NCBI RefSeq assembly: GCF_001677475.2
Contig: NZ_CP015229.1
Source: Escherichia coli
GTDB lineage: Bacteria > Pseudomonadota > Gammaproteobacteria > Enterobacterales > Enterobacteriaceae
Strand: one strand, 5' to 3'
DNA length: 64,000 nucleotides
A program made the translations under genes and the position numbers. The notes below the pieces were generated by a model, which saw only the letters and a program-made list of their open reading frames with translations, ran no database searches and was not told the DNA's origin. This document shows positions 3,778 to 36,956 of the stretch, piece by piece. Each line of letters begins with the position of its first letter. Within the stretch, counting starts at the first letter, position 1.

Positions 3778-6618
3778 TCATTCTTCCACCAGCCACTTCT
3801 GCCAGCTTGCCCGCACCAGTTCACGCTCTGCGGTGAAGCAATCCTCCGACACATGGCCCGGCAATTCCTGTAATGCCAGATGATGAAGTTCATCGCGCAG
3901 CGTCGTGTAAGCACGGGTCAGCGCCATCGCTTCCTGCTCTTCCATAATGTCGTTTTGCGCCAGTAGTTCCAGAATGCGCACGTTGTCTGACCAGCGCGTT
4001 AACTTCGGTTTTTCATGAGCGTAGCGCAACACCAGATATTGAGTAATAAATTCGATATCGGTAATTCCGCCTTCATCGGCTTTGATATCAAAGCGATCGC
4101 GATGTTTATTGCCGAGATGGGCACGCATTTTCTCGCGCATTTCCCGCACTTCTGTTTGCAGGGTTTTGCCTTCGCGCGGCAGCATCATAATTTCCCGACG
4201 CACCGCGTCAAAGTGCGCAGTGAGCTGTGGATCGCCATACACTACCCGCGCACGCACCAGCGCCTGATGCTCCCACGTCCAGGCCTCGTTTTTCTGATAA
4301 TCAGCAAACGCTTCAGCGGATGTCACGAGCATTCCCGCCGCCCCGGACGGACGCAGCCGCGCATCCACTTCGTACAAAATGCCGGAAGAAGTACGCGTAC
4401 TGAACAGATGCATAATGCGTTGCGCCAGACGCAGATAAAATTGCCGCCCGTCGATTTCCCGCTCGCCGTCGGTCATCACATCCATCGGGCAATCATGGAG
4501 GAAGATCAGGTCAAGATCGGAACTGTAACCTAACTCCCAACCGCCCAGCTTGCCGTAGCCGACCACCGCAAAACCACGGCCTTCGCGTTCGTTCAGGTGA
4601 TTTGGCTTACCGTAGCGGGCAACCATTTGAACCCACGCCTGCTGAACGACGGCGTCAATCATGGCTTCCGCCAGCCAGGTTAAGTGATCGCTCACTTTCA
4701 TCACCGGTAGCGTACCGGCGATATCCGCTGCCGCAATACGTAACAGTTGCGCCTGTTTGAACTGACGCAGCGCCTCAAGCTGTTGTTCTTCGTCATCTTC
4801 CGGCACGCGCAGTAAATACTGGCGCAGTTCATCACGGTAGGCATCCGTCGCCGTCGGCTGGTAGAGAGTGTTTGGATCGAGCAGTTCATCCAGCAATAAC
4901 GGATAACGCGCCAGTTGGCTGGCAATCATCGGCGATGCGGCACACAGAGAAATCAAATGTTTAAGCGCCGCGGGGAATTCACTGAGCAATTCTAAATAGG
5001 TGGTGCGGGTAACAATCCCCACCAGCAAGGCGGTAATGCGCGACAGCGTAACGGCAGCGTCTTCACGCGCACAGACATCACTTAGCAAATGTGGCATCAG
5101 ATGGTCGAGCACCTGACGTCCTCGCGGCCCGATGGTGCGCTTATCCAGCTCTTTGCGGAAATCGGCAATCAGCGTTAGCACCTGTTTGCGATCATCCTCG
5201 CTAAGATGCGCCAGCACTGGCGTGGTGTCATCTTCCTGCAACGCATCCTGCCACAGCTCACGCCACTGTTCCGACAGCGACTCTTCCTGAGTTTCGCTTT
5301 CGTCGTCGCCAATCAATTCGTTAAACACCCGGCGCACATTGGTCATATGTCCGGTCAGCTTCCCTGTTAGTTGCGACCAGTCAGCGAAATCCATTGCCCA
5401 CGCCAGCCGCGCACGATTAAGCTCATCAGAAGGAAGCGTCTGGGTTTGTTCGTCGTTAATGCTTTGCAGCAGGTTTTCCAGACGCCGCAGGAACAGATAC
5501 GCCACTCGCAATTGTTCAGCATCGTTTTCAGAAAGCAGATGCAGCGCGGCAATAGCGCTGAGCGTTGGTAGTAAAGAGCGCGATTGCAGCGACGGTTCAC
5601 GCCCGCCGCGAATAAGCTGGAATACCTGGACGATAAATTCAATTTCTCGAATGCCACCCGCGCCAAGTTTGATGTTGTCGGTCAAACCACGTCGACGCAC
5701 TTCGCGGGCAATCATCCCTTTCATGTTGCGCAGCGACTGGATGACGCTGAAATCGATGTAACGACGGAAAACAAACGGGCGCAGCATCGCACGCAACTCG
5801 TTAGCATAGACGCCTTCGCTATCGCCCATAATCCGCGCCTTGACCATCGCGTAACGCTCCCAGTCGCGCCCCTGCTCCTGGTAATAATCTTCCAGTGCCG
5901 CAAAGCTCAGCACCAGCGGGCCACTTTCGCCAAACGGACGCAGTCGCATATCCACGCGATAGACGAAACCATCCTGCGTTGGTTGATCCAGCACTTTAAT
6001 CAGCCGCTGCCCCATGCGGGTAAAAAACTGCGCGTTATCCATTTCCCGGCGTCCGCCCTGGGTACAACCATGTTCCGGCCAGGCAAAAATCAGATCGATA
6101 TCAGAGGAGAAATTCAGTTCCCCGCCGCCCAGCTTACCCATGCCTAAAATCAGCAGCGGTTGCGCTTCGCCCTGCGCATTGCACGGCGTTCCCCATTCGC
6201 GGCAGCAGGCGTCATACAGCCAGTCACGCGCCGCAACAATCAGCGTCTCCGCCAGATGACTGAGCTGCTGCAAAATGCTCTCTTCAGTAACCAGTGCCAG
6301 CGTTTGCGCCCAGGCGATGCGCACCATAATGCGCCGCCGGAATAGCCGCAGCTCGCGCATTACCCCGGCTTCGTCACTCACATTACTGAGCGCCTCCTGC
6401 AACCAGGCAGCGTAATGCTGCCATTCGTCGGCCTGCGGCGGTTGGCTTTCCAGTTCCGTCAGCCACTCTGGATGCGCAATCACGCTGTCCTGCACAAAAT
6501 CACTGAAAGTAAGTACTGACTTCGCCTGTGCGCTAAGTGATTCCTCGGCTAAAGGCTCTGGCAGCCGCTCAACAACGGTCTGCCAGTACTGCTGTAACGG
6601 TGAAGAGAGCGGCTTCAT
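3778..6618 (-). CDS. glnE: Glutamine synthetase adenylyltransferase/adenylyl-removing enzyme
   Basis: ORF track gives 1014 aa from an upstream alternative start; the recognised GlnE N-terminus [13 protein letters not shown] begins at the ATG whose complement is at 6616-6618, giving 946 aa with two nucleotidyltransferase domains. Confidence 0.9.
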
Positions 6619-8867: not shown

Positions 8868-10106
8868 GTGAAGATTTATCTGGTCGGTGGTGCTGTTCGG
8901 GATGCATTGTTAGGGCTACCGGTCAAAGACAGAGATTGGGTGGTGGTCGGCAGTACGCCACAGGAGATGCTCGACGCGGGCTACCAGCAGGTAGGCCGCG
9001 ATTTTCCTGTTTTTCTGCATCCGCAAACGCATGAAGAGTATGCGCTGGCACGTACTGAACGGAAATCCGGTTCCGGTTACACCGGTTTTACCTGCTATGC
9101 CGCACCGGATGTCACGCTGGAAGATGATCTTAAGCGTCGCGATCTGACCATTAATGCGCTGGCCCAGGACGATAACGGCGAGATTATCGACCCGTACAAC
9201 GGTCTGGGCGATCTGCAAAATCGTCTGTTGCGCCATGTTTCCCCCGCTTTTGGCGAAGATCCGTTACGCGTATTGCGCGTGGCGCGTTTTGCTGCGCGTT
9301 ATGCCCACCTCGGTTTTCGTATTGCCGATGAAACTCTGGCACTGATGCGCGAGATGACCCATGCGGGTGAACTGGAACACCTGACGCCTGAACGGGTATG
9401 GAAAGAGACGGAAAGCGCCCTCACCACCCGCAATCCCCAAGTCTTCTTCCAGGTACTGCGCGATTGTGGTGCACTGCGCGTTTTATTCCCGGAAATTGAC
9501 GCCCTGTTTGGCGTTCCGGCCCCTGCCAAGTGGCATCCGGAAATCGACACGGGTATTCATACCTTAATGACGCTCTCAATGGCGGCGATGCTGAGTCCGC
9601 AGGTCGATGTCCGTTTCGCAACGCTATGCCACGATCTCGGTAAAGGACTGACGCCGCCAGAACTTTGGCCGCGTCATCATGGTCATGGCCCGGCGGGTGT
9701 TAAGTTAGTGGAACAACTCTGCCAGCGTCTGCGTGTGCCAAATGAAATTCGCGATTTAGCCAGACTGGTGGCTGAGTTTCACGATCTCATCCACACCTTC
9801 CCAATGCTGAACCCAAAAACCATCGTCAAATTATTTGATTCCATCGATGCCTGGCGTAAACCGCAGCGTGTCGAGCAACTGGCGCTGACCAGCGAGGCTG
9901 ACGTGCGCGGCAGAACCGGTTTTGAATCGGCGGACTACCCGCAAGGCCGCTGGTTGCGCGAAGCCTGGGAAGTGGCACAGTCAGTGCCGACAAAAGCCGT
10001 CGTTGAAGCGGGATTTAAAGGTGTGGAGATTCGCGAAGAGCTGACCCGACGGAGGATTGCGGCGGTAGCCAGCTGGAAGGAACAACGTTGCCCAAAGCCT
10101 GATTAA
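8868..10106 (+). CDS. cca: tRNA nucleotidyltransferase (CCA-adding enzyme) with HD domain
   Basis: 412-aa ORF from a GTG start, [12 protein letters not shown]...; HD motif (HDLGK) in C-terminal half. Confidence 0.9.
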
Positions 10107-22351: not shown

Positions 22352-22475
22352 ATTTACTCCTTTCTAACATCACCAGGAAAAGTATAACGAATTGAAAATA
22401 CATTGTTTATAAAAACAGCAGGCGCGCGGTAATGGCTGGATTGCGACACGGAGTTACTTTATAATCCGCTACCAT

Positions 22476-22551
22476 GGCCCCTTAGCTCAGTGGTTAGAGC
22501 AGGCGACTCATAATCGCTTGGTCGCTGGTTCAAGTCCAGCAGGGGCCACCA
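22476..22551 (+). tRNA. ileX: tRNA-Ile (anticodon CAU, lysidine-modified)
   Basis: 76-nt sequence ggccccttagctcagtggttagagcaggcgactCATaatcgc...gggccacca folds as a canonical cloverleaf with CAT anticodon and encoded CCA; its 3' 46 nt are repeated at 36093-36141. Confidence 0.92.
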
Positions 22552-22554
22552 GAT
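22506..22554 (+). repeat. attL core (3' part of ileX plus 3 nt)
   Basis: Exact 49-bp identity with 36093-36141, read directly from the sequence. Confidence 0.85.
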
Positions 22555-22593
22555 TTCAATGAATTACAGATGTATCCAAACTATCTTGCTTTA

Positions 22594-22627
22594 CCAGGAT
22601 ACTTATAGGATACCTCTGAGAAGTATT
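22594..22627 (+). promoter_or_regulatory. Arm-type repeat near attL (AGGATAC motifs; candidate integrase/accessory-factor binding site)
   Basis: ccaggatacttataggatacctctgagaagtatt closely matches 35964-35997 near attR (29 of 34 positions). Confidence 0.45.
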
Positions 22628-22765
22628 AACAAGTAAGAATTGGCTCATGCCTACAGAACAGTTGGGTCGTAGCAGCCGTTCACCTGCGAACAAGAAAGTG
22701 CTACGGGTCTGAACTTTTGCCCCCAACTCTCCAAGAGACCGGCAAAAACCCTGACGGAGGTATCA

Positions 22766-22909
22766 ATGGATACTTTAAGAAAGGGCTCAGACCTGCTGTC
22801 TGCACGTGTGATTGCCGTTACAGGTTTAATCGCAGCACTTGGCAATTTAGGTCTATGCCCAATAGCCGTAGTGCTAGTATGTATAGCTTTAGTTATCATG
22901 CTGAAGTAA
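22766..22909 (+). CDS. 47-aa small hydrophobic membrane peptide (MDTLRKGSDLLSARVIAVTGLIAALGNLGLCPIAVVLVCIALVIMLK)
   Basis: Strong SD (ggagg) 6 nt upstream of ATG; followed by hairpin gcccagctttcgctgggc; a single predicted TM helix. Too short to be in the ORF track. Confidence 0.5.
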   Translation: MDTLRKGSDLLSARVIAVTGLIAALGNLGLCPIAVVLVCIALVIMLK

Positions 22910-23356
22910 TGACAGCGTAACAAGCTCGGCCCAGCTTTCGCTGGGCCTCCCATTTCTACCTCCCAAAATCTATTAGAAACAATAAGCCACTAAAGAAAGA
23001 GCTTTTGCTGGCTACAATACTCACATACAAACAATTTTTATTTTTCGCGGGCGTAAAAAAACGATGGGGCTGGCAGTCCGGAAGACGTCAGGGTACAGAG
23101 ATTTGTACCCGCCTCTCCCTGTGCATGAGCACAATAAGTAACCGAAGGCGGAATTCCGCCCTCGGTACTCACATATGAGAAACGATATTTCTTCCACCGA
23201 TACCCTTTATTTGGGTATCGCGAGTAAGCCCCAAAATCTGGGTGTTACTCTTACTACCCAAACTACGGGTAGTTTCCGTAGTTTCATGGTCGAGTTGCAG
23301 ATCTGCAACTCACCCACCAGCCAACGCAATTTTGCGTTATCGGGAATATCAGCAAG

Positions 23357-23652: not shown

Positions 23653-23973
23653 TTACTTGTCTTTATTCGGCTGCAACTTATCCGGCACATTTCCGGTAGT
23701 TTCCATCAGGTAATCAGCCAGTATCTGTGGGAGGTTGTCGGCAACTCTGGCACTGGCATTACAGGCTTTAACCACTTCCCTTTTAAGCCCATCCAGCATA
23801 GCGGGGGTAATGTGTGGGAAGCTCCTTTGCATAGTAAGCGGGAGGCTGTCCATGATTGATGAAATCTGACTCGCCAGTTTTGAAAGCGCGTACATGCAAA
23901 ACTCTGTATCAATCACGTCACCGCGATCGCGCTCGTTTTTAAGTTCCTGCGCCTCCGCCTGTGCTGTCAGTAA
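23653..23973 (-). pseudogene. Small terminase subunit (lambda Nu1-like), C-terminal fragment separated from its N-terminus by the IS insertion
   Basis: Translation ...AQAEAQELKNERDRGDVIDTEFCMYALSKLASQISSIMDSLPLTMQRSFP... parallels lambda Nu1 C-terminal region (...AQADAQELKNARD...ETAFCTFVLSRIAGEIASILDGLPLSVQRRFP...) from memory. Confidence 0.7.
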
Positions 23974-24085
23974 TCTGATCCTGACTCGTAAGTATGAGAC
24001 GACAATAACTCAGTCCGCCTGGCGCCGATTATTCTGGCCGGTTTTGTAACCTGAGTGTCATTTACATGATCCAACAGGAAATGGC

Positions 24086-25465
24086 GTGACGCTCAATACT
24101 TCTCAGGTCAGTTACTATATGACTCAGCGTAAGAAAGGTATAACTCAGCATATCTCGGCCATGAAGGCTGGTATCTCAGTCCGTTCTGGTCGTCGGATCG
24201 AAAAAGGAGAGTGGGCAAAAAACAGTGTTCGGCACTGGCGCACACGCAAAGATCCTCTGGAAGCTGTGTGGGACAGCATGCTTGTTCCTCTGTTGAAAGA
24301 GAGGCCGGCTCTGACACCAACAACTCTACTGGAGATGCTACAGGATAAATATCCCGGCCAGTACCCCAACAGCCTTCGAAGAACAATGCAACGGCGGGTT
24401 CGCGAATGGAAACTACAGTATGGTACAGAGCAGGAGGTCATGTTCCGCCAGCAACATCAGCCCGGCCTGCGAGGCCTGTCGGACTTTACTGAACTGAAAG
24501 GTGTAGTTGTCACCATCGCCGGTAAGTTGTTGGCGCATAAGTTGTATCACTTCCGTCTGGAATGGAGCCACTGGAGCTGGATGCGGGTTGTTCTGGGTGG
24601 TGAGAGCTTCTCTGCTCTGGCTGAAGGCCTGCAGGAAGCCCTCGGACAACTGGGCGGAGTGCCGGTAGAACATAAAACGGACAGCCTGAGGGCAGCATGG
24701 AAACAACAGGGCGAAGATGGACGCCGCGAGCTGACTGAGCGTTATGCTACTCTCTGTCAGCACTACGGAATGCAGGGCGTACACAATAATGCCGGTCGGG
24801 GCCACGAAAATGGCTCGGTTGAAAGTGCCCACGGACATCTGAAAAGGCGTATCTGTCAGGCGCTGATACTGCGGGGCAGTAACGACTTCAGCACCATAGA
24901 AGAATATCAGGCCTTCATCACTCAGCAGGTTATGCGGCACAACCGTAACAATCAGGATCTGGTCAAGGAAGAACGTCTTCATCTGAAACCGCTGCCGCTT
25001 CGTCGCAGTGCTGACTATGATGAGCTGACTGTGAGGGTTAGTCGCAGCAGTACCATCAATGTGAAGCACGTCGTCTACAGCGTACCTTCCCGGCTTGTAG
25101 GTCAACTGTTACGGGTCAGGTTATGGGACGATCGTCTGAGCTGTTACGTTGGCAGCAGCGAGGTCATGAGCTGCCCTCGCGTCAGACCAGAAAAAGGGAA
25201 GACGCGGGCCCGTCGTATCGACTTCCGACATGTGATCGACAGTCTGGCAAAAAAGCCCGGTGCGTTCTGCCATGCAACGCTGAGAAATGACATCCTGCCG
25301 GACGATGAATGGCGGAGGCTGTGGCGTCGCTTATGTAATCATCTGGAGCCCGATATGGCAGGAAGGCTGATGGTACATGCCGGGAAACGTGGATCTGCAC
25401 CGGCTGATGCGCTTCCTGGGTATAAAAGAAAAGGCGTTGCCGGTAGTCAATGTGATACAGCATAA
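24086..25465 (+). CDS. istA: IS21-family transposase IstA
   Basis: 459-aa ORF (GTG start) with N-terminal HTH and DDE-type catalytic region; sits immediately upstream of an IstB-like gene. Confidence 0.8.
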   Translation: MTLNTSQVSYYMTQRKKGITQHISAMKAGISVRSGRRIEKGEWAKNSVRHWRTRKDPLEAVWDSMLVPLLKERPALTPTTLLEMLQDKYPGQYPNSLRRTMQRRVREWKLQYGTEQEVMFRQQHQPGLRGLSDFTELKGVVVTIAGKLLAHKLYHFRLEWSHWSWMRVVLGGESFSALAEGLQEALGQLGGVPVEHKTDSLRAAWKQQGEDGRRELTERYATLCQHYGMQGVHNNAGRGHENGSVESAHGHLKRRICQALILRGSNDFSTIEEYQAFITQQVMRHNRNNQDLVKEERLHLKPLPLRRSADYDELTVRVSRSSTINVKHVVYSVPSRLVGQLLRVRLWDDRLSCYVGSSEVMSCPRVRPEKGKTRARRIDFRHVIDSLAKKPGAFCHATLRNDILPDDEWRRLWRRLCNHLEPDMAGRLMVHAGKRGSAPADALPGYKRKGVAGSQCDTA

Positions 25466-25510
25466 CCTGAGCAGTTATGAGCAACTACTGCGTGGCAAGG
25501 GAGGTTCGCA

Positions 25511-26266
25511 GTGAGCAATATCCATCACCTTGAACATAGCCTGCGTAAACTACGCCTGACACGAGTTGGAGCTGAATGGCACGCTCTGGAAAAACGAGCG
25601 CTGGCAGAAGGCTGGACACCATCGCGCTATCTTCTGACGCTATGCAATGAAGAACTCCTGTGGCGCGAGAGTGAAAAACTGCGTCGTTATAAAAAGGAGG
25701 CCCGGTTGCCAGTTGCCAAAACGCTGAGCGAATACGACTTCAGTCAGGTGCCGGAACTGAATGGAGCTCAGTTCCGGCAACTCTGTGAAACGACAGACTG
25801 GGTTGATGCAGGAGAAAACGTTCTGCTGTTCGGAGCCAGCGGGTTGGGGAAAAGCCATCTGGCGGCAGCGATCGTGGATGGCGTAGTAGGTCAGGGCTAC
25901 CGGGCCCGGTTCTACAGCGCAGGAGAGCTGTTGCAGGAACTACGTAAAGCCAGAGCTCAGTTGAAACTGAATGAGCTGCTACTGAAACTGGATCGCTACC
26001 GGGTGATAGTGGTGGATGATCTTGGCTATGTCAAACGCGATAGTGCCGAAACGGGTGTGCTGTTCGAGTTAATAGCGCATCGCTATGAACGTGGGAGCCT
26101 GGTGATAACCAGTAACCATCCGTTCAGCATGTGGGGCAGCATCTTCGTGGATGAGACTATGGCGGTGGCTGCGGCAGACAGGCTGATCCATCACGGATAT
26201 ATGTTCGAACTGAAAGGGGAAAGCTACAGGAAAAAGACAGCGAAGGCAGTAACAAGCGCGACTTGA
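25511..26266 (+). CDS. istB: IS21-family helper ATPase IstB
   Basis: 251-aa ORF with Walker A (GASGLGKSHLA) and Walker B (VIVVDDLGY) motifs; RBS gggagg upstream of GTG start. Confidence 0.85.
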   Translation: MSNIHHLEHSLRKLRLTRVGAEWHALEKRALAEGWTPSRYLLTLCNEELLWRESEKLRRYKKEARLPVAKTLSEYDFSQVPELNGAQFRQLCETTDWVDAGENVLLFGASGLGKSHLAAAIVDGVVGQGYRARFYSAGELLQELRKARAQLKLNELLLKLDRYRVIVVDDLGYVKRDSAETGVLFELIAHRYERGSLVITSNHPFSMWGSIFVDETMAVAAADRLIHHGYMFELKGESYRKKTAKAVTSAT

Positions 26267-26325
26267 TGTCGCCCTGAAGGGTGCGGCCAGTATAGTTGGC
26301 GCGAGTCGGCAAAACTAGTTGACGT

Positions 26326-26526
26326 CTAATATCGTAAGAGTTCATCATCATCAATCTCGCCTTTGTCGTTTGTAAGCTGGCTAATTGCATTGTTAACCCT
26401 ATTGTCTATCACGCTGGCAACATCATAAAACGCCTCACGGCCTTTACGTTCAACGGGAGTCACTCCCCACTTGTCGAATGCTGTAGCACTTACCCGGCAG
26501 CTTTGCGCCATGGTTTTTTTGTTCAT
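26326..26526 (-). pseudogene. Small terminase subunit (lambda Nu1-like), N-terminal fragment truncated at the IS boundary
   Basis: MNKKTMAQSCRVSATAFDKWGVTPVERKGREAFYDVASVIDN... parallels lambda Nu1 N-terminus (MEVNKKQLADIFGASIRTIQNWQEQGMPV...); ORF ends exactly at the IS junction. Confidence 0.7.
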
Positions 26527-26747: not shown

Positions 26748-27161
26748 TCAGATGGTTTTCAGTATGCGATCGATGTCGCCATCATCGCCCGGGTTTCTGC
26801 CAGCGTATGCCATACCAGCTGATACGGCTTTCGGGCTGTGCATGTCCATAAAGTTTTCAAAGGCTGCGGTAAGCTCTGGTGCAACCTTCTGGCGTTCCTG
26901 CTCTATGGTCATGCTAAGGATGCTTTTAGCCGTACCAACATCGATACAAGGCACGTTTGCCATTGCACGTAACAGCGGCTGATAGTCGCCAGATTCATCA
27001 AGCGCCATAATCGCATCAGAGCGCGGCTTGTCCTTCTCTTCCAGGCTGTTAAGTTGATATACGGCCTCGTAGGTTGATAAACCTCTGTCAGCCATTGCCC
27101 GCGCTTCGGCCTTAAATTTACTCGCCAGCGGTAGCGTCATGATGCTTTCATTCGTTGCCAT
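26748..27161 (-). CDS. Hypothetical protein (137 aa) between decoration-like gene and cos
   Basis: ORF with no motif I recognise; co-oriented with capsid genes. Confidence 0.55.
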   Translation of the reverse strand: MATNESIMTLPLASKFKAEARAMADRGLSTYEAVYQLNSLEEKDKPRSDAIMALDESGDYQPLLRAMANVPCIDVGTAKSILSMTIEQERQKVAPELTAAFENFMDMHSPKAVSAGMAYAGRNPGDDGDIDRILKTI

Positions 27162-27173
27162 CGTTCCCTCTGC

Positions 27174-27509
27174 TTATCGGGCCAGTGGCTGAACGGATAC
27201 GCCAGAACCCGCAAAGGCGGCGCATTTTTTCGCATCGGTGTCGACGCTCTCAGGCCAGTTAACGGCGGCGATATTAAATATCCCCGTCTTATAGCACTGT
27301 GCTGATTTCTGCGTCGACGTGTCAACGGGGTACGAGGTCAGATAAACAGCCTTGCCAGATTCCTGACCATCCCACGGCTTAAACTCGCCATTTTCCGCCA
27401 GCATCAGCGGGGTAAATTCCTGAATAACTCCAGCATCAGCGGCAAAATGTACCAGCGTCGTGGATACCTGCTGACTGCCTGCAAATAACTCAATGTATGG
27501 AGTGTTCAT
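27174..27509 (-). CDS. Head decoration protein (lambda gpD-like)
   Basis: 111-aa ORF, size and position next to an E-like capsid gene match lambda D (110 aa); assignment by context and size, weak sequence recall. Confidence 0.6.
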   Translation of the reverse strand: MNTPYIELFAGSQQVSTTLVHFAADAGVIQEFTPLMLAENGEFKPWDGQESGKAVYLTSYPVDTSTQKSAQCYKTGIFNIAAVNWPESVDTDAKKCAAFAGSGVSVQPLAR

Positions 27510-27520
27510 AGAATCCCCCG

Positions 27521-28576
27521 TTAAGCAATTTTGACGGTAACAAATTTGCGAATATCTGCCGGTACCGGCTGCGGTGCGCTGTGCGTCTGCACGTACTCAA
27601 TCGCCGGATCGCCATCCTCAATCCAGTTTTTCGGGTAGTACATGTTTTGCGTTGCGCCAGTTCTTACCGCTTCCGGATCCATAATCGCACCATAGGCCAC
27701 CAGCCCTTTATTGTTAGTGTTGCCCAGGACAAGCAAATCAGGCTCAAGGAAATATTTTTCGGTGCCATCGCTGTCGGTGTATTTGCCGGAATAGACGATA
27801 AGGGCCAGATCACCCAGATAGCCTTTAAAGCTCACCACTTCGCCCAGGTTTTTACAGGCCAGCTCTGCGGCGGATTCTGAACCACGGGAAAGATCGTACA
27901 GTTCACGGAATTTTTTAAAGCTGCGTAACGTGCGCCATACCTCAGCGCCCATAATCATGACGTTGGCGGGGCAACCAGCCTGATCGGTGTATAGTTCGAT
28001 GTCATAGATTGGATCGTGTGTTTCCTTATCTGCCTCAGACCACTTTTTGCCCGATCCCTGCGTAATGATGTTTTTAGTCGGGATTTTCCAGTCGATTTCG
28101 TATCTATTTATTCCTTCGCCCTCAATGATGTTTTTTCCGGTCGTGACCGCATTCACCGCCAGCCATTCTATGCGAGCTTTAATAGCGTTTACCTGGCGGC
28201 GCATGTTGCCAGTAATCAGGCGCATACGGCGATAAGTTGGATCGTTAAGCTGTGCCGGATCTTCTCCAGCCATGCGCATGATGGTTTTTGATGGATCGAT
28301 TTCGTGTTTTGGTTTCATATAGCCAGGGCGGATAGTGCTTGTTTCGTACCCTTTATCGCGCTGAACCTGACTCCCCACCATAGGCGAACAAAAAGCCGAC
28401 ATGGTGACTTCTTCAATATCCAGGGTATCTAACATGATGTCCTGCGTGTTGAAGGTTGCCACGTTCGGGAAAAACAGCGACGTAAACAGCGGACTGAATT
28501 TAAATTCCGAAATATCCCCACGATTCAGGTACGCGAAAAGCTGGTTAGTGTTAAGTGCCGTTGCTTTGCCTGTCAT
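27521..28576 (-). CDS. Major capsid protein (lambda gpE-like)
   Basis: 351-aa ORF aligning along its length with lambda E from memory: FKFSPLFTSLFF / FKFDPLFLRLFF, PGYMKPKHEIDP / PGYVKPKHEVNP, YSGKY...LVLGNTNN...YPKNW / YSGQY...MVLGNTQA...YPKNW. Confidence 0.8.
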   Translation of the reverse strand: MTGKATALNTNQLFAYLNRGDISEFKFSPLFTSLFFPNVATFNTQDIMLDTLDIEEVTMSAFCSPMVGSQVQRDKGYETSTIRPGYMKPKHEIDPSKTIMRMAGEDPAQLNDPTYRRMRLITGNMRRQVNAIKARIEWLAVNAVTTGKNIIEGEGINRYEIDWKIPTKNIITQGSGKKWSEADKETHDPIYDIELYTDQAGCPANVMIMGAEVWRTLRSFKKFRELYDLSRGSESAAELACKNLGEVVSFKGYLGDLALIVYSGKYTDSDGTEKYFLEPDLLVLGNTNNKGLVAYGAIMDPEAVRTGATQNMYYPKNWIEDGDPAIEYVQTHSAPQPVPADIRKFVTVKIA

Positions 28577-29742: not shown

Positions 29743-29971
29743 CCTTCACCTGTTCACCTTTTGATATTTTCCATTTAAATTCATACTGTTAAGGGGTGAA
29801 CAGTTTCACAAAAACTATTCACCAACTGTTCACCACTGTTCACCCTTGAAGCTCAATAAACAACCAAAAAGGTGAACAGTGAATAGTTTGGTGAATAGTT
29901 CATAAATAACTGTTCACCCTATAATATACTGATATAAAAGATATTTATGACAGGGTGAACAGTGGTGAACA
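29743..29971. repeat. Iteron array (P4 ori/crr-type TGTTCACC octamers)
   Basis: Perfect TGTTCACC at 29751, 29827, 29837, 29911 and its complement GGTGAACA at 29795, 29871, 29954, 29964, plus degenerate copies (tattcacc, ggtgaata), within ~230 bp immediately 3' of the primase gene. Confidence 0.8.
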
Positions 29972-29985
29972 GTTATTCCATAAGT

Positions 29986-33429: not shown

Positions 33430-33648
33430 TTACACCGTCTGCGTTCTGCGAGTGGATGCAAGATAAGCATCGAGATCAGTGCGCATATACAGCACTTTGC
33501 GCCCCAGCTTATGGAAAGGGATTTTTACCTTGCCAGTACAGGCCCAGTTCGCCAGCGTTTGATTGTTAACGCCAAGGTAGGCAGCAGCTTCAGCACGTGT
33601 AAGGCGGTCAGTTGATAAATCAGATTTCTTTAAATTCATATCTATCAC
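33430..33648 (-). CDS. alpA: AlpA/excisionase-family HTH regulator
   Basis: 72-aa ORF with LTRAEAAAYLGVNNQTLANWACTGKVKIPFHKLGRKVLY (MerR-like HTH_17 pattern). Confidence 0.75.
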   Translation of the reverse strand: MIDMNLKKSDLSTDRLTRAEAAAYLGVNNQTLANWACTGKVKIPFHKLGRKVLYMRTDLDAYLASTRRTQTV

Positions 33649-33786: not shown

Positions 33787-34507
33787 GGGGGTGAACAAGT
33801 TCAAACGAAGAATATTTATCAGGTCTTGGTGGTTGTGCTCCTGATTCTTTAATCCATTTATCCAGAGTGTTTTTACTTACTTTCCCATGATAGTAAACAG
33901 AAAGCTCGTTCAATAAACCTGTTTTACTGGCTTTAGGGTACTTTTCCCATGTTAGTTTAATTACGTGCATAACTTCATTGTAATAATGATTTCTTGGTTT
34001 GCGCGCTTTTTCTTTCTGTGATAAGGATAAAGCATCTTTTATTTTTTTATCTTTTTCATGGTTCGATATAATTTCTTCAAAAAAGTCATTAAGCAATAAC
34101 TCAACACCAACCCTAGTAAGTTTGTCTGCGTGATTACGCATTCCGACATGGTACAATGCAACTGCTGAATTTAAAGTATCGACAACCTGACAAGATAGTT
34201 TACTATCAAATATTAAAAAACCACATGAATCCATTCTTATAGCTAATTCAATAGGATATTGCTCGATTTCTCTTAATTCTAAACCATAACACAAAAGAAA
34301 TTCTCTTGTTGGATACTTTGATTTATAAAAATAATCTCTTATATCATCAATCAAGCGTTTTATAGCCTCTATGGTGGAGTTTTTCGGGGATAAAGATACA
34401 GGAACGTTTAAAACTGAAGAGTCTCGCCCACCAGTAATTAAATCATTCATAACCGAATAAATAATATATTGTTTGACCGATATATTGTTATCACCCATAT
34501 ATGTCAT
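33782..34507 (-). CDS. AT-rich orphan protein (241 aa) in the integrase-proximal cargo position
   Basis: Long ORF with visibly lower GC than the rest of the island; overlaps the int stop; no motif I can recognise. Confidence 0.6.
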   Translation of the reverse strand: MTYMGDNNISVKQYIIYSVMNDLITGGRDSSVLNVPVSLSPKNSTIEAIKRLIDDIRDYFYKSKYPTREFLLCYGLELREIEQYPIELAIRMDSCGFLIFDSKLSCQVVDTLNSAVALYHVGMRNHADKLTRVGVELLLNDFFEEIISNHEKDKKIKDALSLSQKEKARKPRNHYYNEVMHVIKLTWEKYPKASKTGLLNELSVYYHGKVSKNTLDKWIKESGAQPPRPDKYSSFELVHPQ

Positions 34508-35912
34508 TCTTTTCTTGTACTATAGCAAATAGTAAACGACGTTTTTCATCATCACTCATGCCCTCCAGTGCGGAAAGTAATTGCGCATCGATAGATTTTT
34601 TACTCTCCACCAGCCCGGCATGTTCCAGAATTGCCCGTTCTATCCGTGATGCTGGCTCCAGCAGTTCATCAGCACCGAAATGTAAATACCCCTGCGTTAC
34701 GTCGGCACTTCGCATAGTGCGGTGATTCATCAGGCGCTTGAGGATGTAATTACCCACGCCCACCAGCTCAGCAACCGTTCCGAACGTCCGGCGTGCGTCG
34801 TGCCACTTAAACGGGACAGGGAAGAGCATTTCATCGTTCGCCTCAGGAATGGTAGCCGCGCTTATCCGGTCTATGATGTGCCGTGTCTCCTGAATCACTC
34901 CCTTCACGCCAGGAAACACCAGCACATCATCAGCAGCTTTGTTTTTTAGCCTGCGAAGAAACATTTTCCGCAACGTATCAGTGATCGGCAGTTCAAGCGG
35001 ATCCCCGTTTTTCGTGGTGTCTATCCAGAAAAAGCGACCGCCCATATTCACGCGATCCCACGTAAGGCCAAAAACTTCTGATTTCCTCAGTCCGGTAAAC
35101 AGTGCCATTTCCACGGCATCACATACCGTAACAGCTATATCATCCCTTTCCTGTTCGCCCTGGTCGCGCACAGCAGCTACAGCAGCAAACCAGCGGGGAA
35201 AATCATGCAGGCGGATACGTTCCGTTTTTCTTACCGTTCCGTGCCACTGGCGCTTGGTGCTCAGTACCAGAGTCGGCGGATCCGGTAAAAGAGTATTACC
35301 CGCATCATCACGGTAATGATCATGCGCAAACCGACACACAGCACGTAGCGCACGCGCCCATAAATCGGCCTGTGCCTTGCTTCCTGTACCAACCCCAGCC
35401 CGTAACGTGGTTTTATCAGCACCGAACCATACAGCCCCATCAGTGATGGCCTTATGCCGTTGTTCCACCCGTTCGCGGGAAATACTGGCGAGGGTATGGG
35501 CCATCCAGTCACCGGAATAATTCTGTAATATGCTGCGGTACTGTTTTTCTGTGGAGGGTTTCAGGCGGTGGCCACGATTTTTTACGTAGGCGTCAATCGC
35601 CTCACTCAGCGTTATCATGGCCTTGTTGTTAGTGCGCTTTGCTATGTTCGGATTTATCCCCGTTGTGGCGACTTCGCCAAGGAGTTCCATAGCTTTAGCC
35701 CTGGCATTATCCACGCTCAGATCAGGAAAACGCCCCAGCGTTGCACGAATAAATTTTCCGTTACGCTTACGGGAAATGCAGAAACTTTTCACACCAGACG
35801 AACCTACACGGACACGCAGCCCGTTAACCTCCGTATCACCATATTCGACCTGTCCATGTTCCGGCGTTGGCAGTTCTGCAATTTTTACTTTAGAGAATCT
35901 GAATAATTTCAC
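34491..35912 (-). CDS. int: Tyrosine site-specific integrase
   Basis: 473-aa ORF from a GTG start; catalytic signature region (LRKSE..., WHDARRTFGT, ...QGYLHF) with an N-terminal arm-binding-like domain. Confidence 0.85.
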   Translation of the reverse strand: MKLFRFSKVKIAELPTPEHGQVEYGDTEVNGLRVRVGSSGVKSFCISRKRNGKFIRATLGRFPDLSVDNARAKAMELLGEVATTGINPNIAKRTNNKAMITLSEAIDAYVKNRGHRLKPSTEKQYRSILQNYSGDWMAHTLASISRERVEQRHKAITDGAVWFGADKTTLRAGVGTGSKAQADLWARALRAVCRFAHDHYRDDAGNTLLPDPPTLVLSTKRQWHGTVRKTERIRLHDFPRWFAAVAAVRDQGEQERDDIAVTVCDAVEMALFTGLRKSEVFGLTWDRVNMGGRFFWIDTTKNGDPLELPITDTLRKMFLRRLKNKAADDVLVFPGVKGVIQETRHIIDRISAATIPEANDEMLFPVPFKWHDARRTFGTVAELVGVGNYILKRLMNHRTMRSADVTQGYLHFGADELLEPASRIERAILEHAGLVESKKSIDAQLLSALEGMSDDEKRRLLFAIVQEKNDIYG

Positions 35913-35935
35913 TCATACACCCCACCAAGCGATCT

Positions 35936-35997
35936 GGTATCCTGGAAAATCGCTTGTTCTGCTCCAGGATACCTATAGGATACCGTAAAGAAGTATT
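35936..35997 (+). promoter_or_regulatory. Arm-type repeats near attR, directly upstream of the integrase start
   Basis: ggtatcctgg / ccaggatacc inverted pair plus tandem GGATACC copies and the block shared with 22594-22627. Confidence 0.45.
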
Positions 35998-36092
35998 TTG
36001 GGGTATATACAGGTATTTATACAGTAGTTTTAAAAAATGCTAAGGTATTGAAAAGTATCGCTAAGTATCTGTAAGTAAAGGGTTATCAACCA

Positions 36093-36141
36093 ACTCATAA
36101 TCGCTTGGTCGCTGGTTCAAGTCCAGCAGGGGCCACCAGAT
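36093..36141 (+). repeat. attR core (displaced partial copy of tRNA-Ile 3' end)
   Basis: 49-bp exact copy of 22506-22554; upstream sequence is not tRNA-like, so this is not a functional tRNA. Confidence 0.85.
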
Positions 36142-36191
36142 ATAGCAAAGGCTGACGAGAAATCGTCAGCCTTTTTCTTTTTATATATCAG

Positions 36192-36956
36192 TTACTTTGC
36201 GTGCCAGTAAGCCGCTGCACGTACCCGCTGTGGATCATACTGTTCCGCTTCAAAGCGGCGGCTTAAATTCTTAACGACTTTGCCTTCGCCGGTTATCCAG
36301 ATGAAGTAATCATCGGCAGGGATTTGCATCTGCGCCAGACGCGCATCTACTGCCTGCTCATCATGTGCCAGCCATTCGATATTAAAACCATCAAGGTGCG
36401 CGAGATAATCCTGACAGGCGTTATCCCGCACGCTAACCAGCGCACTAACTTGCGGTTTAACGGCAAGTTTGCTCAACGTTTCCAGGCGGCGGCGCAGTGC
36501 GGGCATTCCGGATTCATCGCAGACATACAGCTGATACGCGTAATCTTCCGGCACCACCAGCGAACCGCGGGGACCTGCCACCGTGAGTTTATCGCCCGGT
36601 TGCGCCTGCATTGCCCAGCTGCTGGCGACGCCACCTTCGTGAATAAAGAAATCAATCGCCAGTACATGGCGTAGTTCGTCATACAGCGGTGTATAGTCAC
36701 GCGACGGTGGGCGTGGTCCTTCCGGCCAGACGATGCCCTCTTCCGTTACTGTTGGCGGCACAAAGTGAGCATCAGATTGAGGAAAGAAGAGTTTGCTGTG
36801 ATCGTCAAAGCCGCGCGATGTAAAACCGTCCAGCGCCTCGCCGCCAAAGACAATGCGCTGAAAACCGGCGCTAATACGCTCAACGCGTAGCACAGTCAGT
36901 TCACGGAAGCGCAGATCATTGCGAACGCGCTGCGGGTAGCGGGGGGAGTTATTCAT
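36192..36956 (-). CDS. yqjH: NADPH-dependent ferric-siderophore reductase (siderophore-interacting protein)
   Basis: 254-aa ORF, FAD-binding/ViuB-like; divergent from yqjI. Confidence 0.88.
   Translation of the reverse strand: MNNSPRYPQRVRNDLRFRELTVLRVERISAGFQRIVFGGEALDGFTSRGFDDHSKLFFPQSDAHFVPPTVTEEGIVWPEGPRPPSRDYTPLYDELRHVLAIDFFIHEGGVASSWAMQAQPGDKLTVAGPRGSLVVPEDYAYQLYVCDESGMPALRRRLETLSKLAVKPQVSALVSVRDNACQDYLAHLDGFNIEWLAHDEQAVDARLAQMQIPADDYFIWITGEGKVVKNLSRRFEAEQYDPQRVRAAAYWHAK

Follow-up and report, generated by a model that had tools for sequence, protein, structure and literature searches.

The window, the 64-kb stretch of Escherichia coli chromosomal DNA that we analyzed, contains a 13.6-kb island inserted in the tRNA-Ile2 gene ileX, with mug on one side and nfeF on the other (Table 1). 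ARAGORN labels the tRNA at 22476-22551 tRNA-Met(CAT), and RefSeq labels it tRNA-Ile in relatives. Besides a tyrosine integrase (Int), the island encodes an AlpA-like protein that matches the PHROG family "excisionase and transcriptional regulator" (4.6e-9), a D5-type primase, SSB, a lambda-E-type major capsid protein, a D-type decoration protein, and a Nu1-like small terminase. Because int, AlpA, primase, capsid, and terminase genes occur together, we regard the island as a phage-satellite (PICI-like) element. An Rfam search of the island returned tRNA only, and PADLOC found zero defence genes among the variable ORFs. The Nu1-like small-terminase gene is split by an IS21-family element (23993-26331, with istA at 24086-25465 and istB at 25511-26266), and its C-terminal part lies at 23653-23916. 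Because this insertion is not in the TUM1886 island, which is otherwise 99.9% identical, the satellite copy in the window is probably packaging defective.

Table 1. Features of the island and of its attachment sites, by position in the window
Feature	Position	Strand	Evidence or remark
tRNA-Ile2 gene ileX, anticodon CAT	22476-22551	+	ARAGORN; Rfam tRNA, 73 bits
attL copy of 49-bp core direct repeat	22506-22554	+	Perfect repeat
IHF-like site, P' arm, TTTCAATGAATTA	22554-22566	+	One mismatch to WATCAANNNNTTR
P' arm tandem arm-type sites (putative), CCAGGATACT + ATAGGATACC	22594-22614	+	11 bp start to start
Two phased GTA(T) repeats, P' arm	22620-22638	+	GTA invariant at 22623-22625 and 22633-22635
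AlpA-like HTH_17 protein, candidate excisionase (RDF)/activator	33430-33648	-	Pfam HTH_17, 1.4e-11
Tyrosine integrase, 473 aa, GTG start at 35912	34491-35912	-	PF13356, 2.5e-13; PF00589, 1.1e-12
Pseudo-core, ACCAAGCGATC at 35924-35934 and AATCGCTTGTT at 35948-35958	35924-35958	.	Inverted copies of core 11-mer
Inverted arm-type site (putative), CCAGGATACC on - strand	35936-35945	-	24 bp upstream of int start
P arm tandem arm-type sites (putative), CCAGGATACC + ATAGGATACC	35964-35984	+	11 bp start to start
Phased GTAT/ATAC repeats, P arm	35990-36025	.	GTAT at 35993 and 36003
Near-invariant block, TATTTATACAGT	36014-36025	.	P arm
IHF-like site, P arm, TTTCAATACCTTA on - strand	36041-36053	-	Midway from core to P tandem
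attR copy of 49-bp core direct repeat, tRNA 3' fragment	36093-36141	+	Host DNA resumes at 36142

The island is bounded by the two copies of the 49-bp repeat, which correspond to the 3' part of tRNA-Ile2 and have no mismatch between them. When the island was excised in silico by joining 22400-22554 to 36142-36300, 4955 of the 5426 complete E. coli genomes searched contained the resulting junction without interruption, and the island ends are therefore exact. The integration target is ileX, which is still intact at attL. The P4-like/IntSXT integrases are likewise characterized by insertion in the 3' part of a tRNA gene that the island then restores. The point of strand exchange can be placed more narrowly than the repeat itself, because loci L001 and L002 carry an island-borne variant of the T-arm, so that attL and attR are equal over only the first 19 bp of the attL repeat. 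This limits the exchange to 22506-22524 (ACTCATAATCGCTTGGTCG), that is, to the anticodon loop and the 3' stem.

L001 (at 4945-5020) and L002 (at 5618-5693), and also L014 and L009, are among the islands that bring their own form of the tRNA 3' half. In this form, the T-stem has a C>T change with a compensatory G>A change, and the T-loop is altered. When an island with its own tRNA 3' half integrates, the resulting tRNA-Ile2 is thus chimeric but can still fold, and a hairpin brought by the island comes after it. Decayed copies of the P' tandem described below (e.g., AAATATCCTATAAATATCCTGGAG) are found in host DNA beyond attR, some 50 bp away from the tRNA fragment, at ~9690-9720 in L003, ~9700-9730 in L007, and ~9670-9690 in L011. 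These copies suggest relics of earlier islands, or of former tandem arrays, at the same site.

A second, shorter kind of repeat is found near both island ends. The initial annotation had described a block of about 34 bp near attL and attR with an extra inverted copy upstream of int, and we recovered all of these: 22594-22627 (CCAGGATACTTATAGGATACCTCTGAGAAGTATT) pairs with 35964-35997 (CCAGGATACCTATAGGATACCGTAAAGAAGTATT) at 85% identity, and the inverted copy (GGTATCCTGG) is exact at 35936-35945. With up to 3 mismatches allowed, the 21-mer CCAGGATACYTATAGGATACC occurs in the 64-kb window at 22594-22614 and 35964-35984 only, and it had 0 matches in 100 dinucleotide shuffles. The heptamer AGGATAC occurs 8 times in the window against a shuffle mean of 3.7, and 5 of the 8 copies fall in the two arm spots (22596, 22607, 35966, and 35977 on the + strand and 35937-35943 on the - strand). 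The sites conform to a consensus of roughly 10 bp, YAGGATACY. One tandem, which we call P', sits 40 bp to the right of attL and the other, P, sits 109 bp to the left of attR. AGGATAC is not present in the 49-bp core; the repeat is distinct from the core and flanks it left and right, as arm-type sites do.

We used the integrase alignment to retrieve 16 loci from other genera (Citrobacter, Kluyvera, Kosakonia, Trabulsiella, Superficieibacter, Buttiauxella, Erwinia, Serratia, Yersinia, and Xenorhabdus), whose Int proteins are 68-79% identical to that of the window. With the window and two E. coli islands, these loci make up 19 elements, and the far island end is reached in 8 (the window, the two E. 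coli islands, and five other-genus loci). All 16 other-genus loci have an adjoining tRNA-Ile2 3' fragment and GGTATCC-N4-GGTATCC (at most 1 mismatch) upstream of int. At the same tolerance, all 19 elements have the P tandem, and the gap that separates it from the anticodon-loop motif CCAAGCGATTATGAG is 108-109 bp. Much of the DNA between this tandem and the core diverges across the 19 elements while the length of the gap stays fixed, and spacing this strict points to a constraint of recombination geometry. The P' tandem (at most 1 mismatch) is present in 8 of 8 far ends, some of them in unrelated DNA, at 75-78 bp from the core, a spacing that varies by 3 bp; an alignment of the far ends had no conservation past this tandem. 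The inverted arm site (at most 1 mismatch) lies 22-24 bp from the P tandem in 18 of 19 elements, Buttiauxella being the one without it.

Within a single element, the 4-bp linkers of the two arms vary together: they are CCAG and CCTG in the Buttiauxella locus (L005) and CATA-A on both arms in the Yersinia locus (L013). Two more distant relatives, with 45-49% identity in the N-terminal domain of Int, have the same layout built on another motif: one has four GGTAGCACC repeats, and the other has two direct and two inverted copies of GGTTAGAC about 120 bp from a tRNA fragment. Arm sites and their distance to the core are thus conserved where the integrase is shared, and the motif changes where the arm-binding domain has diverged.

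Within E. coli, the int-proximal arm is common to 86 genomes, whereas the left arm of the window was found in only 28. The TUM1886 and FDAARGOS_1258 islands have a different left arm that consists of unrelated DNA with an island-borne T-arm variant and a hairpin, and despite this they retain TAGGATACCTATAGGATACC, which starts 48 bp past the tRNA. Even among the E. coli right arms that have diverged most, the tandem does not vary, and the inverted copy has single substitutions in two strains; judged from these alignments, the inverted copy is under looser conservation than the tandem. The left end of the island in the window (22555-23034) is a mosaic segment that is unrelated to the TUM1886 island, is common to 28 other E. 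coli genomes, and occurs in part in the Trabulsiella and Superficieibacter islands. An ORF at 22766-22906 (+ strand) encodes a very hydrophobic peptide of 46 aa (MDTLRKGSDLL...VIMLK) with a GGAGG site before it and a conserved block of ~60 bp upstream. Searches of Pfam, PHROG, and Rfam gave no match to this peptide, and our guess is that it is a small membrane toxin.

Int has a separate N-terminal arm-binding domain (residues ~1-100) in front of its C-terminal catalytic domain, and PF13356 (Arm-DNA-bind_3) spans residues 9-94. A profile of the N terminus made from 54 sequences matched the arm-binding domains of the HPI (3JTZ) and HAI7 (3JU0) integrases in the PDB at about 2e-9; with a profile of full-length Int, the weak match to 3JU0 that the single sequence had given was lost. 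The AF2 model of the N-terminal domain (pLDDT 90.9) has strands at residues 21-26, 32-37, 42-50, and 53-62 and a helix at 67-84. In a Foldseek search with this model, the significant PDB matches were 3JTZ (TM 0.89, rmsd 1.3 A), 3RMP, and 3JU0 only, and the 3RMP entry is described as "recognition of attP substrates by P4-like integrases." A four-stranded sheet with a helix is the DUF4102 type of fold, and DUF4102 is treated as the arm-binding domain of the P4-like/IntSXT subgroup (Smyshlyaev et al. 2021, PMC8138268). In the remainder of the protein, R276, K301, H371, R374, H397, and Y409 are invariant in 19 homologues. These residues form the R-K-H-R-H-Y pattern of tyrosine recombinases, by which we assign them putative catalytic roles.

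The comparative and structural evidence supports the proposal of the initial annotation that the repeats are likely integrase arm sites that define attP. With high confidence, we interpret the AGGATAC repeats as arm-type sites that the island's integrase, a heterobivalent tyrosine recombinase, is predicted to bind. They are most likely an additional case of the known arm-type sites of P4-like/DUF4102 integrases.

Other conserved elements lie beside these sites. All 8 P' arms and 16 of the 19 P arms have an IHF-like match with at most one mismatch, at a position that is fixed for each of the two arms; because 38% of shuffles have a single match, the weight of this observation is carried by the fixed position only. 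The columns TAA..C.TTG are invariant in the P' site, and T98, C99, A100, T107, and A108 are invariant in the P site. The phased repeats of the P' arm correspond to the invariant TAC columns 136-138 and 146-148 of alignment A3, and the conserved P arm columns of alignment A2 are 124-135, 143-145, and 152-156. Both arms have one module in common, with ATAC at -22, ATAC at -12, GGTATCC at 0, and GGTATCC at +11. This common module explains the tail of the 34-bp block, GAAGTATT: of the block that had been annotated as arm repeats, the two AGGATAC sites stand, and the tail is better assigned to the phased ATAC/GTAT series. The ATAC repeats of both arms may be AlpA/RDF sites or weak inverted arm sites. 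Those of the P arm, together with the near-invariant block (35990-36025 in all), are possible RDF/AlpA sites and/or a possible -10 element of the int promoter; a search for this promoter found no consensus sigma-70 promoter in 35800-36250.

The AGGATAC repeats themselves might be bound by the AlpA-like excisionase/activator instead of by Int and might set directionality or activate int. The gene for this HTH_17/excisionase-like protein is conserved together with int wherever the loci reach far enough, with a homologue of 62-78% identity in 14 of the 16 other-genus loci and in the two E. coli islands, that is, in every locus long enough. Because the two genes co-occur, their presence or absence is uninformative as to which product is the binder, and the AlpA-like protein has diverged about as much as Int across the loci. 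The sites that an RDF binds are typically short direct repeats arranged in tandem within an att arm, as with the five TorI sites in KplE1 attL (PMC2951348). However, they usually occupy one arm, in the interval between the arm sites and the core, whereas each arm has an AGGATAC tandem, which lies farther from the core than the IHF-like site. Furthermore, the dedicated arm-binding domain of Int needs cognate sites, and there is no other equally conserved repeat on both arms; the phased ATAC repeats beside the tandems are the better RDF candidates. We therefore consider binding of the AGGATAC sites by the AlpA-like protein unlikely and favor Int.

The region next to int also has features of a regulatory site. 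Two copies of a core 11-mer (AATCGCTTGGT, at 36099-36109 in the core) form what we call the pseudo-core; they are inverted, start 24 bp apart, and have the inverted arm site between them. With at most one mismatch at a fixed offset, the direct copy is found in 12 of 19 elements and the inverted copy in 13 of 19, which 0.02% of shuffles reach. An RNA hairpin formed by the int-proximal inverted repeat was considered as well; the repeat had no compensatory changes, and covariation was no better than in shuffles, and we therefore dropped the hairpin in favor of protein sites. The AGGATAC sites could be a transcriptional operator only, for int or for its neighbors, with no role in recombination. 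The inverted copy and the P tandem are 24-72 bp upstream of the int start, within the pseudo-core, and integrase promoters that overlap att arms are negatively autoregulated in KplE1 and with other tRNA-linked integrases (PMC2951348). Yet an operator for int leaves unexplained why another tandem is found 13 kb off, at the opposite end of the island, where it keeps a fixed distance to the core in 8 of 8 far ends with unrelated DNA adjoining, and the strict 108-109 bp spacing of the P tandem indicates recombination geometry. A solely regulatory function is thus very improbable; arm sites can also serve regulation, which is probably a further role of theirs and not a competing explanation. Finally, two-copy repeat families are often chance matches, but coincidence can be dismissed here, and so can a neutral remnant of a duplication or of gene conversion involving both island ends, because zero shuffles gave a match and the block is kept in both arms across more than 10 genera in which the adjacent DNA is unalignable.

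From the positions, conservation, and spacing of the sites and the fold of the arm-binding domain, we infer how Int and its partners would work at attP. After excision, attP would begin with the P' tandem at 22594-22614, an IHF-like site, and the 49-bp tRNA core, with exchange in the anticodon loop. It would continue with the second IHF-like site, the phased ATAC repeats, the P tandem at 35964-35984, and the inverted site in the pseudo-core, followed by int. The N-terminal domain of Int would bind the YAGGATACY sites, roughly 10 bp each, on both arms, and the C-terminal domains would bind and cut the core. IHF would bend the DNA between arm and core so that one Int molecule could bridge both kinds of site. 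The bridged complex would be the intasome that carries out integration into ileX, and the same assembly with the AlpA-like excisionase would excise the island. The int-proximal sites are located between int and any upstream promoter, and for this reason Int bound there probably represses its own gene.

The pseudo-core may take this regulation one step further. Its half-sites are 17 bp apart, compared with the 7-bp anticodon loop in the real core, which amounts to one extra helical turn. With the half-sites one turn further apart and an arm site in the gap, Int could bind through both of its domains without recombining, and such binding could throttle its own synthesis. We tentatively propose, as a possibility that we hold to be less probable than not, that 35924-35958 is a dedicated Int operator in which two inverted CCAAGCGA half-sites hold an arm site in their gap and allow self-throttling without recombination. 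If this is true, then the operator and the shared ATAC-ATAC-GGTATCC-GGTATCC module make up a layout that we did not find described for P4-like integrases in the literature searched. In our hypothesis, the pseudo-core is the sole feature of this attachment site that might be new in kind.

Phage lambda Int has the arm-type sites P1, P2, and P'1-P'3, and its attachment site has the IHF sites H1, H2, and H'. The island resembles lambda in its predicted heterobivalent integrase, in the non-core repeats of about 10 bp that flank the core within an attP of roughly 250-330 bp, in tandem sites one helical turn apart, in the presumed IHF-type bends from arm to core, and in a small excisionase gene nearby. 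It departs from lambda in that its arm-binding domain folds as the four-stranded HPI type (PF13356) instead of the lambda type and in that it inserts in a tRNA gene. Furthermore, its int gene lies directly beside attP, with transcription leading away from attP, and its pseudo-core holds an additional inverted site. The HPI and HAI7 integrases (3JTZ, 3JU0, and 3RMP) are alike in the family and fold of the N-terminal domain and in integration into the 3' part of a tRNA gene. However, the arm-binding domain of the island's Int is only about 23% identical to theirs, the protein is longer (473 aa) with a weak Pfam score for the catalytic domain, and the tRNA is Ile2 rather than Asn, so that the arm and core sequences differ.

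For KplE1 IntS, which carries PF13356 and aligned at 33% identity, arm-type sites have been mapped experimentally (PMC2951348). In KplE1 (CPS-53), which is at argW, the arm-type, core-type, and RDF sites overlap the integrase promoter beside the att site, IntS and TorI repress intS, and the RDF sites are short phased repeats (PMC2951348). The real core adjoins intS in KplE1, whereas here it is about 180 bp from int, and here a separate inverted core-like pair lies by the int start codon; by analogy, autoregulation could operate at this pair.

The Gram-negative satellites (PICI, cf-PICI, and P4-like) share several traits with the island: the int-alpA-primase backbone, a length of 11-13.6 kb, an att site of their own, and capsid and packaging genes without tail or lysis genes. 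Compared with cf-PICI, the island has only a major capsid gene, a decoration protein gene, and the IS21-disrupted terS, and it lacks the full set with terL, portal, and protease genes. We did not find the att arms of the island described in the literature searched, and our literature searches found no paper on the AGGATAC arm motif or on the ileX att site of these islands. In searches for the excised form, the attP junction (P tandem, about 200 bp, P' tandem) had no match in IMG/VR, and the reconstructed 648-bp attP was matched by phage records in its tRNA part only, with no contiguous site in E. coli genomes. The 13 metagenome matches to the attP pattern were all rejected as unrelated GGATACC arrays without the tRNA core. 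One high-GC metagenome contig (L022) has, at 9574-9812, a dense GGGATACC array downstream of a terminator-like hairpin, again without the tRNA core; this array is probably an iteron region that resembles the arm motif by coincidence.

These results map attP, at the level of the sequence, for a family of satellites that targets ileX and is widespread in enterobacteria, with a YAGGATACY consensus, fixed spacings, IHF-like sites, and a 19-bp bound on the crossover. The map should allow precise calling of island boundaries, the construction of integration vectors with a minimal attP, and experiments that directly address how phage-satellite integrases regulate themselves and how directionality is set. 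It leaves the understanding of site-specific recombination unchanged.

Two observations concern the satellites apart from attP. The window (26748-28576), L001, and L002 represent a type of satellite with a major capsid protein, a decoration protein, and terS only, and other islands with the same integrase and att site have a ClpP-protease/capsid fusion or a full terL-portal-capsid set. Morphogenesis modules have thus been swapped on a constant int-att backbone. In addition, 8 of the 10 GTGAACAG/CTGTTCAC octamers in the window are clustered at 29750-29972, where some of them form long inverted repeats. The cluster directly follows the 3' end of the D5-type primase gene and is likely an iteron-type replication origin of the satellite.
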